Shown here in pieces: positions 1-3,465 of a DNA stretch of 3,513 nt (position 1 is the first letter of the stretch; the number at the start of each line of letters is the position of its first letter). Made by a program: the position numbers and the translations under genes. The notes beneath the pieces are model-generated. The model searched no databases and was not told where the DNA came from. It saw only the letters and a program-made list of their open reading frames with translations. The stretch lies in assembly GCF_003334335.1 (NCBI RefSeq), contig NZ_QOWQ01000083.1; one strand, written 5' to 3'. Origin of the DNA: Escherichia coli. Lineage in GTDB: Bacteria > Pseudomonadota > Gammaproteobacteria > Enterobacterales > Enterobacteriaceae.

Positions 1-203
1 CTTGCTAAATCTTCCGTCGTGACATCAATGTGACCACGTAGTGACACGCCGTGACATGTCGTGACATTTCGTGACGCGCTCACCAGAAGGTGGATATACA
101 CTGCCATCACTGTTGCGATTGGCTGTCCTGATACCCTGGCAATCGTTCGCCACTTGGGGTCATTTGGCATGTCATGCCACAATCTGAGCCAGGCATTAGC
201 CAT
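1..203 (-). CDS. Partial CDS (5' end only, runs off the window edge): putative phage replication-initiator / replisome-organizer-like protein
   Basis: Hand translation of the - strand from ATG at 203..201 gives MANAWLRLWHDMPNDPKWRTIARVSGQPIATVMAVYIHLLVSASRNVTTCHGVSLRGHIDVTTEDLA... with no stop down to position 1. It is absent from the ORF track only because no stop lies in the window. AGAGGTG Shine-Dalgarno lies a few nt upstream of the ATG. The W-x-R-L...D-P-K...LL-x-A N-terminal pattern recalls phage replisome-organizer N-domains (from memory). It sits directly downstream of the cro/cII-like genes, where lambdoid phages place replication genes. Confidence 0.45.
   Translation of the reverse strand, partial: MANAWLRLWHDMPNDPKWRTIARVSGQPIATVMAVYIHLLVSASRNVTTCHGVSLRGHIDVTTEDLA
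19..76. repeat. Iteron-like array: six direct repeats of GTGAC(A/C/G) phased at 10-11 bp
   Basis: GTGACA at 19, GTGACC at 30, GTGACA at 41, 51 and 61, GTGACG at 71. Spacings are 11, 11, 10, 10, 10 bp, about one helical turn. The array lies inside the 5' coding part of the leftward partial ORF. Confidence 0.85.
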
Positions 204-271: not shown

Positions 272-697
272 TCAATGCACAACAACAGCATTACCAGGCT
301 GACCACCACTGTTAGTCAGGGTGCCCCAGGCGATCGCTACAGCGACAAAATCATCCACATCTTTCACCAGCCGATCCCGTCGTTCGACGATCTCCCGGTA
401 ATATTCAGAACTGTGACTGCGCATACGGGCCACCAGCAAAGGCGGCATCGCCTTTTCGATCGCCGGTAACAGAGCCTGCATTTTTTCAACAGCATCAGGG
501 GTGTCTTTATCCAGCCAACGGAAAATTTTCTGGGTATTACGGGCCAGGGCTTCCGGATGGCTGTCGTCATACAGTTCCGGGAACGTCATTCCCAGCTCGA
601 AATACGCTTTGGTAATTTTCGCAGCCGGTACTTTTTCGCCGTCCGGATGCGCCCAGACATTCATCGCCATGCGGATGTGTTCATGCTTGATTTTCAT
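272..697 (-). CDS. ydaT: YdaT-family protein (CII-like prophage regulator; historically annotated 'putative toxin YdaT')
   Basis: 141-aa ORF starting MKIKHEHI..., which matches my recollection of the YdaT N-terminus of Rac-like prophages. Its start overlaps the upstream cro-like gene by 17 bp (681..697), implying translational coupling, in the cro-then-cII order of lambdoid phages. Confidence 0.8.
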   Translation of the reverse strand: MKIKHEHIRMAMNVWAHPDGEKVPAAKITKAYFELGMTFPELYDDSHPEALARNTQKIFRWLDKDTPDAVEKMQALLPAIEKAMPPLLVARMRSHSSEYYREIVERRDRLVKDVDDFVAVAIAWGTLTNSGGQPGNAVVVH

Positions 698-953
698 GAA
701 TCAACTCCGGTGCATTTGATGTGTTAACCTTGAATCCAACAGGTAAACCATCGGTTGGGTTAGGATAAATATCAGGGCGAATTTCATGCGGGGTAACTTC
801 CCACTTCATTAGCTGACATAACGGAATTACCTGCTTTGGGGGAACGTCAAAGCTAAACCATTGCCAAACAGTCTGTTGAGCGACCCCCATATAACGACCT
901 ATTTCAGCTTGAGTGTATTTCTGCCTAATTTTTTCGCGAGTGCTATCTAGCAT
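681..953 (-). CDS. ydaS: Cro-like HTH DNA-binding protein (YdaS-like)
   Basis: 90-aa ORF with a helix-turn-helix signature (QAEIGRYMGVAQQTVWQW). GAGGAG Shine-Dalgarno lies upstream of ATG 953..951. It is divergent from the repressor gene at 1063 across a ~110-bp regulatory region and is followed by the overlapping ydaT-like gene. Confidence 0.7.
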   Translation of the reverse strand: MLDSTREKIRQKYTQAEIGRYMGVAQQTVWQWFSFDVPPKQVIPLCQLMKWEVTPHEIRPDIYPNPTDGLPVGFKVNTSNAPELIHENQA

Positions 954-1062: not shown

Positions 1063-1464
1063 ATGATGAACGCCCTAGAAGTATCTATGTACAGAATCAG
1101 CAAGCTTCTTCAGGAAACTGGATGGAGCCAGGCTGAGCTTGCCCGTAGAATTGGTGTGACACAACAAACTGTTCAACAATGGGTCAGCGGTAAGGCTACA
1201 CCTAAAGCCTCAAGTTTGGATAAACTGGTTGAGGTTACAGGGCATCCATTGCATTGGTTTTTATTGCCTCCTGAAGAGGGGGAGCAAATTTTCACCCCTG
1301 ACACGATGAAAATTGGTCCTCGTCAACGCGAACTGCTCCAGGCTTTTAGTGCGTTTCCAGAGGAAGACCAAGAAAAAATGCTTCAAGAAATCAAAGACAA
1401 GAAAAAATCAATGGAAGAAACCATTGCCCGGTGGTTGGCGGCACAAAAAAGCCGCCGGGCGTGA
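1063..1464 (+). CDS. paaR2: HTH-XRE family transcriptional repressor (CI-like); regulator of the three-component PaaR-PaaA-ParE toxin-antitoxin module
   Basis: 133-aa ORF with a classic XRE HTH (SQAELARRIGVTQQTVQQWVSG) in the N-terminal half and a Lys/Glu-rich helical tail. It is divergent from the cro-like gene and immediately upstream of the antitoxin-toxin pair. The paralog assignment (paaR2 versus paaR1) is from memory and unverified. Confidence 0.75.
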   Translation: MMNALEVSMYRISKLLQETGWSQAELARRIGVTQQTVQQWVSGKATPKASSLDKLVEVTGHPLHWFLLPPEEGEQIFTPDTMKIGPRQRELLQAFSAFPEEDQEKMLQEIKDKKKSMEETIARWLAAQKSRRA

Positions 1465-1491: not shown

Positions 1492-1683
1492 ATGAGTACA
1501 GCCCTTTCTCCGATAGTTTCAGAATTCGAAACTACCGAACAAGAAAACAGTTACAACGAATGGTTACGCGCTAAAGTGGCGTCAAGCCTTGCAGACCCTC
1601 GTCCCTCAATTCCACATGATGAGGTAATGGCTGAAATGGAGAATCTTATTGCTCAAATTGCTGTAACTAACAGGAGCGAGTAA
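1492..1683 (+). CDS. paaA2: Type II antitoxin of a ParE-family toxin (PaaA2-like, small and likely disordered)
   Basis: 63-aa ORF MSTALSPIVSEFETTEQENSYNEWLRAKVA..., acidic and low in hydrophobic core residues. AAGAGGAG Shine-Dalgarno lies 7 nt upstream of ATG 1492. Its TAA stop shares one base with the toxin start (TAATG at 1681..1685). Size and sequence match my recollection of PaaA2 from E. coli O157:H7. Confidence 0.75.
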   Translation: MSTALSPIVSEFETTEQENSYNEWLRAKVASSLADPRPSIPHDEVMAEMENLIAQIAVTNRSE

Positions 1684-1970
1684 TGTTACCCATTTTGTGG
1701 CTACCATCTGCTCGCGATGATTTCCGTCAGATCGTAGCCTATATTGCTAAGGAAAATATTCCTGCAGCACGCAGACTAAAAATACGGATTGAAACGTCTG
1801 TTTTAGCCCTCTCTGAGCATCCATATCTATATCCGCCAAGTGATCGAGTATCCGGTTTGCGGGAAATTGTGGTTCACCCTAATTATATCGTTTTGTACCG
1901 AGTAGCAGCTTCAAGCATTGAAATTGCAAATATTGTGCATGCCCGCCGACAATTTCCCTTCCCTATCTGA
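1683..1970 (+). CDS. parE2: ParE/RelE-superfamily toxin (ParE2-like)
   Basis: 95-aa ORF with the ParE-like pattern (N-terminal L-P-S-A-x-DF-x-Q-I-x-YI, central REIVV-x-P-x-YIVLYRV, C-terminal I-x-N-I-V-H-x-R-R). The start is coupled to the antitoxin stop, and CAGGAG Shine-Dalgarno lies 6 nt upstream. Confidence 0.8.
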   Translation: MLPILWLPSARDDFRQIVAYIAKENIPAARRLKIRIETSVLALSEHPYLYPPSDRVSGLREIVVHPNYIVLYRVAASSIEIANIVHARRQFPFPI

Positions 1971-1987
1971 ACTGAACAATTTTCACA

Positions 1988-2013
1988 CTCCCTCATTCGA
2001 GGGAGTTTTTTTT
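1988..2013 (+). terminator. Rho-independent terminator of the repressor-antitoxin-toxin operon
   Basis: Perfect 7-bp stem CTCCCTC (1988..1994) / GAGGGAG (1999..2005) with a 4-nt loop ATTC, followed by eight T (2006..2013), 18 bp after the toxin stop codon. Confidence 0.85.
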
Positions 2014-2023
2014 GCCCAACACA

Positions 2024-2067
2024 ACAATTAAAAACTGTTGACACAAAACAGTTTTTAATTGTAGATT
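2024..2067 (+). promoter_or_regulatory. Second copy of the operator inverted repeat (O site 2) overlapping a strong rightward promoter
   Basis: CAATTAAAAACTGT (2025..2038) and ACAGTTTTTAATTG (2048..2061) are perfect reverse complements with a 9-bp spacer, extendable to 15-bp arms at 2024..2062. Consensus -35 TTGACA (2038..2043) is built from the left half-site plus spacer, and -10 TAGATT (2062..2067) follows an 18-bp spacer. The half-site is the same as at 988..1025 apart from single-base differences. Confidence 0.65.
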
Positions 2068-2246
2068 ATTTCCACTACCCCACCCCGCCCCACAGAACGC
2101 CAGGCAATACTTCGAGTTACCCGGCAGTGGTCAGGGGTTAAGTAGCCAGCCCGAGGCGTATGAACATGACGGCGGGAACACTTTATATAACAGCGCAGCA
2201 GGTTTTTAGTTCCGCTACCCCGGCGTTAAGGGGAAATGAGGTCAGC

Positions 2247-2399
2247 ATGGATACTATCGAGCTTGGCAACAACGAATCTCTGGTATGTGGAGTATTCCCC
2301 AACCTGGACGGCACGTTTACCGCGATGACGTATACCAGAAGCAAAACGTTTAAAACGGAAGCTGGCGCGCGTCGCTGGTTAGCAAGAAACTCTGACTGA
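2247..2399 (+). CDS. Small prophage protein, YdfA/YdaF-like (DUF1391-type); start uncertain, ORF is open from 2160
   Basis: GAGG Shine-Dalgarno lies 5 nt upstream of ATG 2247, giving 50 aa (MDTIELGNNESLV...RRWLARNSD). This size class matches the ~51-aa YdfA/YdaF proteins that follow the repressor gene in Qin/Rac prophages (from memory). The upstream in-frame ATGs at 2160 and 2166 lie within a possible secondary promoter (TGAACA 2161..2166, TATATA 2185..2190). Confidence 0.55.
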   Translation: MDTIELGNNESLVCGVFPNLDGTFTAMTYTRSKTFKTEAGARRWLARNSD

Positions 2400-2497
2400 T
2401 GAAGGTTAGTAATTAAAGAGTTCTCCACAGGCGAAGTGGAATACGTTCGCCGGACACGGGTAAGCATTCGGCATGCTCTTTAACAATCTGGGTATTC

Positions 2498-2944
2498 CTA
2501 ACCACAAAGGAATCGCATCAATTTGGATTTTGCAGACAGTTTCTCTTGTTGTTCTACGGAGATTCCTATTTTGATCTGGGTTTTTAAGATTGCGATATCT
2601 TTAAGCGACGACCAAATATTATCATCTGTTTTTTCCAGGAGCTTTAACTGCATTTTCAATTCCGAATCGGAATATTTTTCTGCATCATCATAAAGCTGCA
2701 GATATTCTGCGGATTTTCTCATTGCGTTACCTGACTTTTGTCCGAATCCGTAAATCGTTTGAACGGTTGCTATCACAACAATGAGAACTCCAGAAACTTC
2801 AGGAATAAATCCACCAATGACAGATGAACCGAGGATAATACTCACCACTGAGAAAAGTTTATCGAGACGACCAGTCGCTACAGAGAATAGTTGTTCAAGA
2901 AAATAATCATATAAAACCCTGTCAAGAATATCATCCCGGTCCAT
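2498..2944 (-). CDS. Hypothetical small inner-membrane protein: N-terminal amphipathic segment, two predicted transmembrane helices, charged helical C-terminal tail
   Basis: 148-aa ORF with AGGTGA Shine-Dalgarno 6 nt upstream of ATG 2944..2942. Hydrophobic stretches LFSVVSIILGSSVIGGFI and GVLIVVIATVQTIYGF are separated by the short loop PEVS, then a Lys/Glu/Asp-rich tail follows. The gene is convergent with the YdfA-like ORF and visibly AT-richer than flanking genes. No homolog recognised from memory. Confidence 0.7.
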   Translation of the reverse strand: MDRDDILDRVLYDYFLEQLFSVATGRLDKLFSVVSIILGSSVIGGFIPEVSGVLIVVIATVQTIYGFGQKSGNAMRKSAEYLQLYDDAEKYSDSELKMQLKLLEKTDDNIWSSLKDIAILKTQIKIGISVEQQEKLSAKSKLMRFLCG

Positions 2945-3003
2945 ATATCATCACCTGCTTGTTTGATTGTTGCTGTTCCCCCTCTCCTCTGAAGGAGCTG
3001 GAG

Positions 3004-3192
3004 ATGGTTTTGGTCGAATGTTTTTCTCAGGTATATGTTTCCTGGTATTCGGAATGTCCGCCCTGTCCGCAGGCTTACCAGTACCTGAACAATTCTTTTG
3101 AACCACCATATAAAACACCTTCCTGTTGTTGGGGATATCCAGATTATACAGATTTCCTGTTATTGGGGAATGACGGAAACCACCTCGCCTGA
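3004..3192 (+). CDS. Hypothetical Cys-rich small protein (62 aa); may be non-coding
   Basis: Consensus AAGGAG Shine-Dalgarno (2992..2997) lies exactly 6 nt upstream of ATG 3004. Product MVLVECFSQVYVSWYSECPPCPQAYQYLNNSFEPPYKTPSCCWGYPDYTDFLLLGNDGNHLA has 6 Cys including C-P-P-C. An equally long low-complexity ORF overlaps it on the opposite strand, and no family is recognised. Confidence 0.25.
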   Translation: MVLVECFSQVYVSWYSECPPCPQAYQYLNNSFEPPYKTPSCCWGYPDYTDFLLLGNDGNHLA

Positions 3193-3407
3193 CGTGGTTA
3201 AAAGCAGGCACACAACACGAAAGCGCACGGCGAGATTCCTTTGCATATAAGGCTTGTCGTTAAATTTCTTCGACCGTGCACTTCCGGTTGTGGCAGTCCG
3301 CGAAATGGCGCGGCGGTAAGTATGGCTGGGGCTTCCTCCATTGCTCCAGAAAATGCACCGGGTCGTCAGGTTGACCATACGCTTAAGTGACAGCCCCGCC
3401 ACAATAC

Positions 3408-3465
3408 CCATGTGTAGTATTTGGTGGCATCAGTTCTACTCCGTGACTGCTCTGCCACCCTTTTT
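3408..3465 (+). ncRNA. dicF: DicF-like prophage small RNA (cell-division-inhibitor sRNA family), 3' end defined by its intrinsic terminator
   Basis: TTTGGTGGCATCAGTTCTACTCCGTGACTGCTCTGCCACCCTTTTT is near-identical to my recollection of E. coli DicF (..TTTGGCGGTATCAGTTTTACTCCGTGACTGCTCTGCCGCCCTTTTT). The terminal stem differs by one compensatory change per arm (GGTGG/CCACC versus GGCGG/CCGCC). The 5' end is approximate because DicF is processed from a longer transcript, and the 5' ~15 nt do not match my memory of DicF. Confidence 0.55.
3423..3465 (+). terminator. Rho-independent terminator (3' hairpin of the DicF-like RNA)
   Basis: GGTGGCA (3423..3429) pairs with TGCCACC (3453..3459), with internal CAG/CTG pairing, followed by C then TTTTT (3461..3465). 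Orientation is + only: on the - strand the T-run would precede the stem. Confidence 0.6.

Follow-up and report, generated by a model that had tools for sequence, protein, structure and literature searches.

A conserved and modular leader RNA in the early-left operon of Rac/Qin-type prophages: its fold, its distribution and a possible part in read-through

In the immunity region of a Rac/Qin-type lambdoid prophage of Escherichia coli (assembly GCF_003334335.1, contig NZ_QOWQ01000083.1), a stretch of about 170 nucleotides (nt) stands between a promoter overlapped by an operator and the small gene ydfA, and the question that this locus raises is what so long a leader, at positions 2075–2246, might be doing there. 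The window, by which the whole stretch of 3,513 nt that was analysed is meant, had been described in an original prediction, made from its letters, as carrying a long C-rich leader that could confer control after transcription, with a candidate internal promoter and, as an alternative, a start of translation at 2160. The features listed in that description are present, all of them within 1 nt of where they had been placed, whereas the readings of them as a second promoter and as a start codon at 2160 are not supported.

The answer given here has parts of different strength. The segment 2075–2246 is very probably a leader RNA, conserved, modular and folded, at the 5′ end of the early-left (PL-equivalent) operon of a Rac/Qin-type prophage, as judged from the comparison of related sequences. 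In general terms it is a structured cis-regulatory leader RNA, having a covarying structure and a fixed position relative to the promoter, and it is an unannotated structured RNA family, found in thousands of genomes and absent from Rfam. A regulatory role after the initiation of transcription is plausible, and the form of that role which we prefer, the read-through of an operon that has no N protein, is put forward tentatively and weighed below against its rivals.

The fold of the leader and its covariation

Within 2075–2246 the conserved cassette occupies roughly 165 nt and begins about 8 nt past the promoter. Its elements, and those that border it, are the following:

2032–2054, plus strand: operator palindrome AAACTGT-N9-ACAGTTT, an OL-type site over the −35 of the promoter
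2038–2067, plus strand: sigma-70 promoter TTGACA-18-TAGATT, 10/12 consensus match in a promoter scan
2082–2138, plus strand: stem-loop SL1, with the helices P0, P1 and P2
2082–2086/2134–2138: P0, ACCCC/GGGGU
2090–2093/2127–2130: P1, CCAC/GUGG
2094–2098: 5-nt bulge AGAAC, between P1 and P2
2099–2104/2120–2125: P2, GCCAGG/CCCGGC, with one A·C mismatch
2105–2119: apical loop CAAUACNNCGAGUUA, 15 nt, near-invariant columns in the alignments
2139–2173: tail UAAGUAGCCAGCCYGAGGCRUAHGAACAUGACGGC, 35 nt, near-invariant and single-stranded, 7 genera
2174–2192, plus strand: variable middle, including TATATA at 2184–2189
2193–2202, plus strand: conserved motif GCGCAGCAGG of the 3′ domain
2209–2212, plus strand: conserved motif GUUC of the 3′ domain
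2213–2233, plus strand: H-type pseudoknot, two interleaved helices S1 and S2
2213–2216/2222–2225: pseudoknot helix S1, CGCU/GGCG
2218–2221/2230–2233: pseudoknot helix S2, CCCC/GGGG
2217 and 2226–2229: pseudoknot loops L1 (A2217) and L3 (UUAA)
2238–2241, plus strand: Shine-Dalgarno GAGG of ydfA, followed by the ATG at 2247
2247–2399, plus strand: ydfA (DUF1391, 50 amino acids, aa), the first operon gene in this prophage

Since a copy of the operator overlaps the −35 of the promoter at 2038–2067, this promoter is taken as the PL equivalent, with a start predicted near 2075 (about 2074–2076) and a leader of about 172 nt up to the ATG at 2247, which bears out the long leader of the original prediction. 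In the order of the cassette, the three-helix stem-loop is followed by the tail, the variable middle and the pseudoknot, which stops just short of the Shine-Dalgarno of ydfA. The stem-loop with its invariant loop, together with the invariant tail, makes up a 5′ domain that is found in all carriers, and the 3′ domain ends in the pseudoknot. The C-tract CCCCACCCCGCCCC lies at 2078–2091, exactly where it had been reported, and provides the 5′ strands of P0 and P1; the GC hairpin CCCCGGCGTTAAGGGG, also confirmed (2218–2233, just ahead of the Shine-Dalgarno), is the helix S2 of the pseudoknot. The supposition that the leader is structured is thus upheld by covariation, in a form far more elaborate than had been claimed.

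The evidence for this fold is comparative, as compensatory changes are found in all the helices among the prophages of E. coli, Pectobacterium, Serratia, Prodigiosinella, Winslowiella, Superficieibacter and Arsenophonus. Helix P2 was examined free of any alignment, by taking the 7 nt on either side of the ends of the invariant loop in 39 distinct copies, which form a mean of 5.15 pairs out of 7, against 4.18 ± 0.11 with permuted partners; at least eight different and perfectly complementary P2 stems occur, for example CGCUGAG/CUCAGCG, CACGAAG/CUUCGUG and GCCGGGA/UCCCGGU. When single sequences are folded with only the loop constrained, three stacked helices of differing sequence recur in nearly all lineages, and the flanks corresponding to P0 and P1 form a duplex of −11.6 kcal/mol with their own partner, compared with −6.6 ± 2.9 kcal/mol with partners from other lineages. 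Finally, in an ungapped alignment of 18 sequences, fitted to no structure, pairing holds in 82.4% of the SL1 cells, a share that drops to 66.6% with shuffling and to about 40% with slid partners; changes on both sides occur in 16 of the 17 pairs, and the cells with double changes number 53, where 14.9 would be expected. RNAalifold, applied to a plain MAFFT alignment, paired only invariant columns and missed P0 to P2, and the pairing that it offered between GUUAY (2116–2120) and GUAGC (2142–2146), in which all columns are invariant and which competes with P2, was not adopted.

The unpaired parts of the 5′ domain are conserved as sequence. Across genera only an NN dinucleotide of the 15-nt apical loop varies, and the tail includes a Shine-Dalgarno-like GAGG (2153–2156), a non-conserved ATG at 2160 and a conserved ATG at 2166, the last of which opens a short open reading frame (ORF) of variable length.

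In the 3′ domain, the pseudoknot attains at least 7 base pairs (bp) in 32 of 41 distinct sequences, against 5.2 (maximum 11) in shuffles, and six of its eight pairs show compensatory changes, among rows that had been selected for pairing. S1 reads CACC/GGUG or CGGC/GCCG elsewhere, and S2 reads GCCG/CGGC, GCC/GGC or CCG/CGG, while in three lineages the knot is replaced by a hairpin with a GRAAGA loop. The distance from the pseudoknot to the Shine-Dalgarno is 1–8 nt in all lineages with a 3′ domain. The middle segment forms a UUGCUG/CAGCAG hairpin in other lineages; one consensus for it was abandoned, as the lineages differ (UUGCUG/CAGCAG in some, GGCGGGA/UUCCGCC in others). In some Pectobacterium-type copies an additional hairpin, long (about 110 nt) and imperfect, has been inserted exactly between UUGCUG and CAGCAG, and these copies keep the flanking conserved motifs (GUUGCUG ... 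CAGCAGG). In Serratia the counterpart of the GCGCAGCAGG motif is AUCAGCAGCAGG. Two further candidates in this domain were discarded: a pairing of loop 3 with AUGACGGC, which is perfect only in Prodigiosinella and is not conserved, and a −1 frameshift site ahead of the pseudoknot, where, in the sequences inspected by eye, the U-run is out of slippery register and is absent elsewhere.

A covariance search of the plus strand of the leader with Rfam 15 gave no match at E ≤ 10, with DicF (3409–3460) as a positive control, and a search with the homologues of Pectobacterium, Arsenophonus, Serratia and Winslowiella gave none at E ≤ 1. No known RNA family (C4/CI immunity RNAs, riboswitches, ribozymes, prophage small RNAs) and no tRNA or tmRNA was found in the leader, and a literature search with strings of the core sequence returned only unrelated eukaryotic primers. 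The prophage small RNAs Pas, AgvB and AsxR are elements of the late region and are unrelated; the Rho-dependent terminator trac of Rac (PMC4150792) is a different feature, located within racR, upstream of the leader; and the pairing of DicF with the leader is no better than with shuffles.

Occurrence and neighbours of the leader

A 177-nt leader sequence is matched in 4,373 of 5,426 complete E. coli genomes (about 80%), with a median of two and a maximum of eight copies per genome, and among the matches listed nearly all carry no annotation. In K-12 the copy is in Rac, between racR and ydaG. The leader is present without ydfA in the phages Evi, vB_EcoS-640R1 and vB_Apl-pPE4, the last of them deposited as an Actinobacillus phage, and a scan of species-representative genomes with the core motif finds it in Superficieibacter, Pectobacterium, Serratia, Winslowiella, Prodigiosinella and, in many copies, Arsenophonus; further viral contigs supplied additional lineages. 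With regard to vB_Apl-pPE4, its immunity region has a DicA-like repressor, YdaT, kil and exodeoxyribonuclease VIII, and the 98-nt 5′ domain of its leader is identical to that of E. coli prophage copies, with an equal model score; its stated Actinobacillus host may deserve a second look.

The position of the leader is constant, and what surrounds it is not. A repressor gene directly precedes it in every context, whatever its type (DicA-like, RacR or LexA-family cI), and the leader heads an operon that runs to kilR or dicB and to recE. In nearly every lineage a strong sigma-70 promoter, with differing operators, ends 36–45 nt ahead of the apical loop, which puts the beginning of the stem-loop some 8–15 nt into the predicted transcript. 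What follows the leader as first gene may be YdfA, YdaG or any of 12 or more unrelated small ORFs, and its start codon, wherever the 3′ domain is present, always falls 96–118 nt after AAGUAGCC.

With a covariance model built on the 5′ domain, exactly one copy per immunity region was found in 91 loci (flanks of about 5 kb or more, both strands); the same model gave no match in lambda, in P22 or at the put sites of HK022. Of 152 distinct carrier loci, 127 lack a boxA within 1.5 kb and only 25 have one, so that a general linkage of the leader with boxA was rejected, and the annotation of the E. coli contexts includes no N gene. The case of Arsenophonus is different: a boxA (CGCUCUUUAACA) lies within about 25 nt of the 5′ domain, followed by a boxB hairpin and a boxC-like GGUGUGUG, and after this boxA-boxB(-boxC) nut site an N-like protein with an arginine-rich N-terminus is encoded. 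There the nut site takes the place of the 3′ domain, which suggests that the 3′ domain and the combination of nut with N could be alternatives; in some other copies from Arsenophonus the 5′ domain is joined directly to a Shine-Dalgarno and an ORF. The numerous Arsenophonus 5′ domains are sometimes found two in tandem orientation, 1.7–2.7 kb apart, from adjacent immunity regions, and each is followed by one of at least three types of boxB hairpin and an N-like gene.

A possible read-through of an operon without N, and other readings

The reading that we favour, with reserve, is that the leader might be a cis-acting device that secures the read-through, by antitermination or an anti-Rho effect, of an early-left operon without N. 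It would act in cis while being transcribed, on the elongation complex or on the nascent transcript, and RNA polymerase would then pass the Rho-dependent and intrinsic stops along a long and partly untranslated operon, in which ydfA, the antisense sieB-like gene, DicF with its own terminator, dicB and recE would have to be read in the absence of an N protein. The helices would present the invariant unpaired loop and tail, through which a conserved host component (RNA polymerase, Nus factors or Rho) would make contact, and the leader would be a functional analogue, not a homologue, of the putL of HK022.

What leads us to this preference is the sum of the covariation in all the helices, the occurrence of one copy in each of the 91 loci, its position at the promoter, its independence from the genes that follow, its invariant unpaired nucleotides, the context without N and the exchange with nut and N in Arsenophonus. 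An element at the 5′ end of the transcript, independent of its neighbours and with about 50 near-invariant unpaired nt, points to a conserved host partner and to a role at the level of the operon, and the variety of unrelated first genes likewise favours an operon-level or host-directed role. A need for read-through is indicated by the plus-strand hairpins at 2659–2673 and 2696–2712 and by the terminator of DicF, all of which lie ahead of dicB. Depletion of RacR in K-12 raises the whole Rac left operon 40–70-fold, out to ralA and ydaC, without N (PMC6765115); lambdoid phages without N have been assumed, without evidence, to use a put-like RNA, of which none has been identified (PMC12315714); and putL sits at the same place, just after the early promoter (PMC9378689).

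The comparison with put deserves some detail. In both cases a structured RNA lies just downstream of an early promoter in a lambdoid phage without N, put acting in cis as the leader would do; in both there are stem-loops with conserved unpaired nt; and a −10-like hexamer of the NANNAT type, AACCAT in putL (PMC9378689), has its counterpart in GAACAT at 2162–2167. Nevertheless, blastn-short finds between them only chance words of 7–9 nt, in keeping with the failure of the covariance model at the put sites, and the architectures differ, put consisting of two adjacent stem-loops of about 70 nt and the leader of a three-helix stem-loop, a 35-nt tail and a distal pseudoknot, about 165 nt in all. Besides, put comes as a left and right pair (putL after PL, putR after PR), in contrast to the leader, which is single-copy and confined to the left operon. 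The antitermination by put needs no factors and relies on the zinc-binding domain of the β′ subunit of RNA polymerase. Homology to put was therefore not accepted, the shared string CCCGGC(A)GUGGUCA being located in the variable P1 strand and not conserved in the leader family.

A likeness to nut sites of the lambda type exists insofar as both are found in the PL leader and as the 5′ domain of Arsenophonus is directly upstream of boxA-boxB-boxC and an N-like gene. However, 2075–2246 contains neither a boxA (CGCUCUUUA-like) nor a boxB, and no N-like ORF was found in the window; most carriers of the leader lack an N gene as well as a boxA within 1.5 kb, and lambda and P22 do not have the leader element. 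The N-leader of lambda (222 nt, with nutL and an RNase III site, controlling the translation of N) is also a long, structured and untranslated early-left leader with structure near the first ribosome-binding site, yet there is no homology between the two, the first gene after the present leader is variable and usually not N, and the leader has no long duplex of the RNase III type. As regards the pseudoknots of H type adjacent to ribosome-binding sites (preQ1-type riboswitches, the leader of T4 gene 32, ribosomal-protein operators), the leader resembles them in its 7–8 bp, its 1-nt L1, its A-rich L3 of 4–5 nt and its distance of 1–8 nt from the Shine-Dalgarno, and departs from them in that it matches nothing in Rfam and leaves its Shine-Dalgarno outside the knot.

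Some minor likenesses to the PL transcripts of lambda and P22 were also seen. Those of lambda (2583–2540, minus strand) and P22 (30885–30840, minus strand) both begin with AUCAGCAGGACGC, and the 3′ domain of the leader has GCGCAGCAGG at 2193–2202; the P22 leader contains GUAGCCA...GGC, as in the invariant tail; and the AT-rich patch followed by CAGCAGG in the leader recalls faintly AUCAGCAGG, with which the PL RNAs of lambda and P22 start. The likeness of lambda and P22 to the leader may reflect a distant relationship or chance.

A number of observations weigh against the proposal that the leader is a folded RNA serving read-through. (i) Its folding energy is unexceptional, both for the whole leader (z = +1.25) and for the 5′ stem-loop alone (z = −1.23); for this reason energy is not used as evidence for structure, which is supported by conservation and covariation. 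(ii) The wobble-pair test of strand is neutral (G·U in 13 cells, A·C in 15), and the assignment to the plus strand rests on the orientation of the promoter and of the operon. (iii) In the 91 loci there is no second, diverged copy in the rightward operon, whereas put and nut come as left and right pairs, and the leader has no similarity to put in sequence or structure. (iv) In Arsenophonus the 5′ domain coexists with nut and N and cannot be merely a substitute for N. (v) Terminator-like hairpins downstream on the sense strand are not enriched, with 1.8 per locus against 4.2 on the antisense strand. (vi) The constant proximity of the pseudoknot to the Shine-Dalgarno fits a translational role equally well.

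This last point opens the way to other explanations. The leader could be a portable cassette of the 5′ untranslated region, in which the stem-loop guards against decay dependent on the 5′ end and the pseudoknot tunes the loading of ribosomes on any first gene; this is a lesser possibility, though one of some substance, as the pseudoknot ends within 8 nt of the Shine-Dalgarno in every lineage with a 3′ domain, the start codon keeps its distance from AAGUAGCC whatever the gene, no more than about 8 nt separate the stem-loop from the predicted 5′ end and some Arsenophonus 5′ domains run straight into a Shine-Dalgarno and an ORF. On the other hand, 50 near-invariant unpaired nt across genera far exceed the needs of a generic stabiliser or insulator, the constant distance may merely mirror a module boundary in mosaic phage genomes, the 7–8 unpaired 5′ nt are more than is typical of protective 5′ hairpins, and in Arsenophonus the element is 240–340 nt from the start of the N-like gene. 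It is less probable, indeed unlikely, that the leader is a sensor RNA (riboswitch, thermometer or protein operator) which would gate kil, dicB and the recombination genes by means of alternative pairings in the 3′ domain. Its several domains, the invariant unpaired nt in loop, bulge and tail that are typical of RNAs binding a ligand or a protein, the compact H-type pseudoknot beside the Shine-Dalgarno and a helix, GGCGGGAAC (2171–2179) with GUUCCGCU (2209–2216), that would compete with S1 in the types of the window and of Rac all speak for a sensor; yet this competing helix is specific to a lineage, most others having GGCAG there, no expression platform that sequesters the Shine-Dalgarno or acts as a terminator is conserved, Rfam offers no riboswitch match, and the unrelated genes downstream allow no ligand to be proposed from gene context.

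Quite improbable is a translated leader, in which the GAGG at 2153–2156 and the ATG at 2166 (or 2160) would start a regulatory upstream ORF or a YdfA of 77–79 aa. The GAGG does sit 9 nt ahead of the invariant ATG; 35 of 52 distinct leaders linked to ydfA have this frame open and in register with the gene, and one 3-nt indel leaves it intact; in Rac and some others the upstream ORF ends within loop 3 of the pseudoknot, at its UAA, near the next start; and PHROG 751 and a 46-aa PHROG match the extension, which implies that gene callers have used it. But the 35 open cases come from two closely related sequence types; in the other 17 of the 52 the frame from the ATG at 2166 is broken while ydfA is intact, and the upstream ORF may have as few as 6 codons or more than 25, its stop falling at no conserved position. 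The alternative start at 2160 has an in-frame ATG (a 79-aa ORF) in only 17 of the 52, this ATG being replaced by TAAG or TACG in most types, and RefSeq annotates the 50-aa DUF1391 protein instead of the long form. Among the 52 leaders, an N-terminal extension of YdfA/DUF1391 is not borne out as coding either by an open frame or by synonymous and third-position changes: its variable sites fall 12/14/13 by codon position, with 4 synonymous changes against 9 nonsynonymous, unlike ydfA, which shows a coding bias (35 synonymous against 19 nonsynonymous, and 22 against 15). Very improbable, in turn, is an essentially unstructured C-rich leader, perhaps a Rho-loading site, with an internal promoter at 2161–2166/2184–2189 and the real start near 2197. 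The C/G ratio of 4.0 in 2070–2109 and an AT-rich patch 17–20 nt after the invariant GAACA in most lineages, followed 4–6 nt later by a CAGCAGG that resembles AUCAGCAGG, are in its favour. However, the C-rich segment covers only about 30 nt, paired in conserved helices. The ratio is 1.3 or less beyond 2109; a rut site is typically C-rich, G-poor and unstructured RNA over about 70–80 nt. Of the proposed internal promoter, TGAACA is indeed at 2161–2166, and the spacer given as 18 bp amounts to 17 with TATATA at 2184–2189 and becomes 18 only with ATATAA at 2185–2190; its −35, with four of six matches here and three in other types, belongs to the invariant block, its −10, which has no T at position 6, falls where the leader is most variable and differs from type to type, and the consensus scan does not call the site. 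The covarying stem-loop at 2082–2138, upstream of this putative start, and the promoter 8–15 nt ahead of it fit a transcript that starts near 2075, and an additional weak start near 2195 may exist beside it. Equally slight is the probability of an element acting as DNA, with no function as RNA, either a recombination linker at a module junction or a protein-binding site: it is placed exactly at the mosaic boundary between variable repressor and operator modules and variable first genes, and the wobble test does not prove the RNA strand, but compensatory double changes keep the pairing in five helices, where a linker needs identity and not complementarity, and the lengths of the helices and the 110-nt hairpin insertion vary as in structured RNAs.

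The surrounding prophage and the meaning of the leader

The rest of the window contains the genes and sites of the immunity region and the first part of the early-left operon:

272–697, minus strand: CII-like/YdaT-family gene
681–953, minus strand: Cro/DicC-like repressor gene
996–1018: second copy of AAACTGT-N9-ACAGTTT, between the divergent repressor genes
1063–1464, plus strand: DicA-like repressor gene
1492–1683 and 1683–1970, plus strand: toxin-antitoxin pair of the RelB/RelE(ParE) type
1987–2006, plus strand: intrinsic terminator, after the toxin-antitoxin pair and ahead of the promoter
2498–2944, opposite strand: sieB-like membrane-protein gene, after ydfA, in the position of sieB in lambda, P22 and Rac
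2659–2673 and 2696–2712, plus strand: terminator-like hairpins with T-runs, within the region antisense to the sieB-like gene
3409–3460, plus strand: DicF small RNA (Rfam RF00039, 62 bits, E = 1.9e-12), downstream in the same operon

The two palindromes, at 996–1018 and 2032–2054, are likely the OR and OL operators of the DicA-like repressor, given that AAACTGT-N9-ACAGTTT is matched twice in the window and that none would be expected by chance. The toxin-antitoxin pair at 1492–1970 is a moron-like insertion between the repressor gene and the early-left promoter, and most other carriers of the leader do not have it. At 16–74 (plus strand), on the edge of the window that faces the replication genes, four to five GTCGTGACAT-like 10-mers with a spacing of 10 nt form an iteron-like array, and at 2951–3211 (minus strand), upstream of the sieB-like gene, an ORF of 86 aa, very basic and of low complexity, has no PHROG match. 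The only boxA of the window, an exact one of rrn type (TGCTCTTTAACAA, 2474–2486, plus strand), is found after ydfA and travels with the sieB module; 7 nt past it there is a hairpin, ATTCCT-aaccacaa-AGGAAT (2494–2499/2508–2513), in a nut-like layout. This pair, 2474–2513, adjoins the sieB-like gene of the opposite strand at its 3′ end, the place of N in lambda and P22; no N-like gene is present beside it, and the pair may represent a relic of nutL or a site for Nus factors independent of N.

The put of HK022 is so far the sole phage RNA known to make RNA polymerase resistant to termination without a protein, and it is confined to a few close relatives. That the present leader represents a hitherto undescribed class of RNA-based device, with no sequence relation to put, which works without N as a processive antiterminator or against Rho, is a somewhat more doubtful proposition than read-through as such. 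It is, in any case, a concrete, widespread and structurally defined candidate for a put-like role in lambdoid phages without N, and it also explains the spurious long YdfA that gene callers occasionally produce. The operon that it heads encodes the inhibitors of cell division KilR, DicB and DicF as well as RecET, and its control matters for viability, for filamentation and for the biology of recombineering; the copy in the Rac prophage of K-12, between racR and ydaG, means that the leader can be tested directly by standard genetics. If the proposal is true, the leader would be the missing device by which lambdoid prophages without N express their kil, dicB and recET operons, a device shared by about 80% of E. 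coli genomes, among them K-12, and by prophages of at least six other genera of Enterobacterales.

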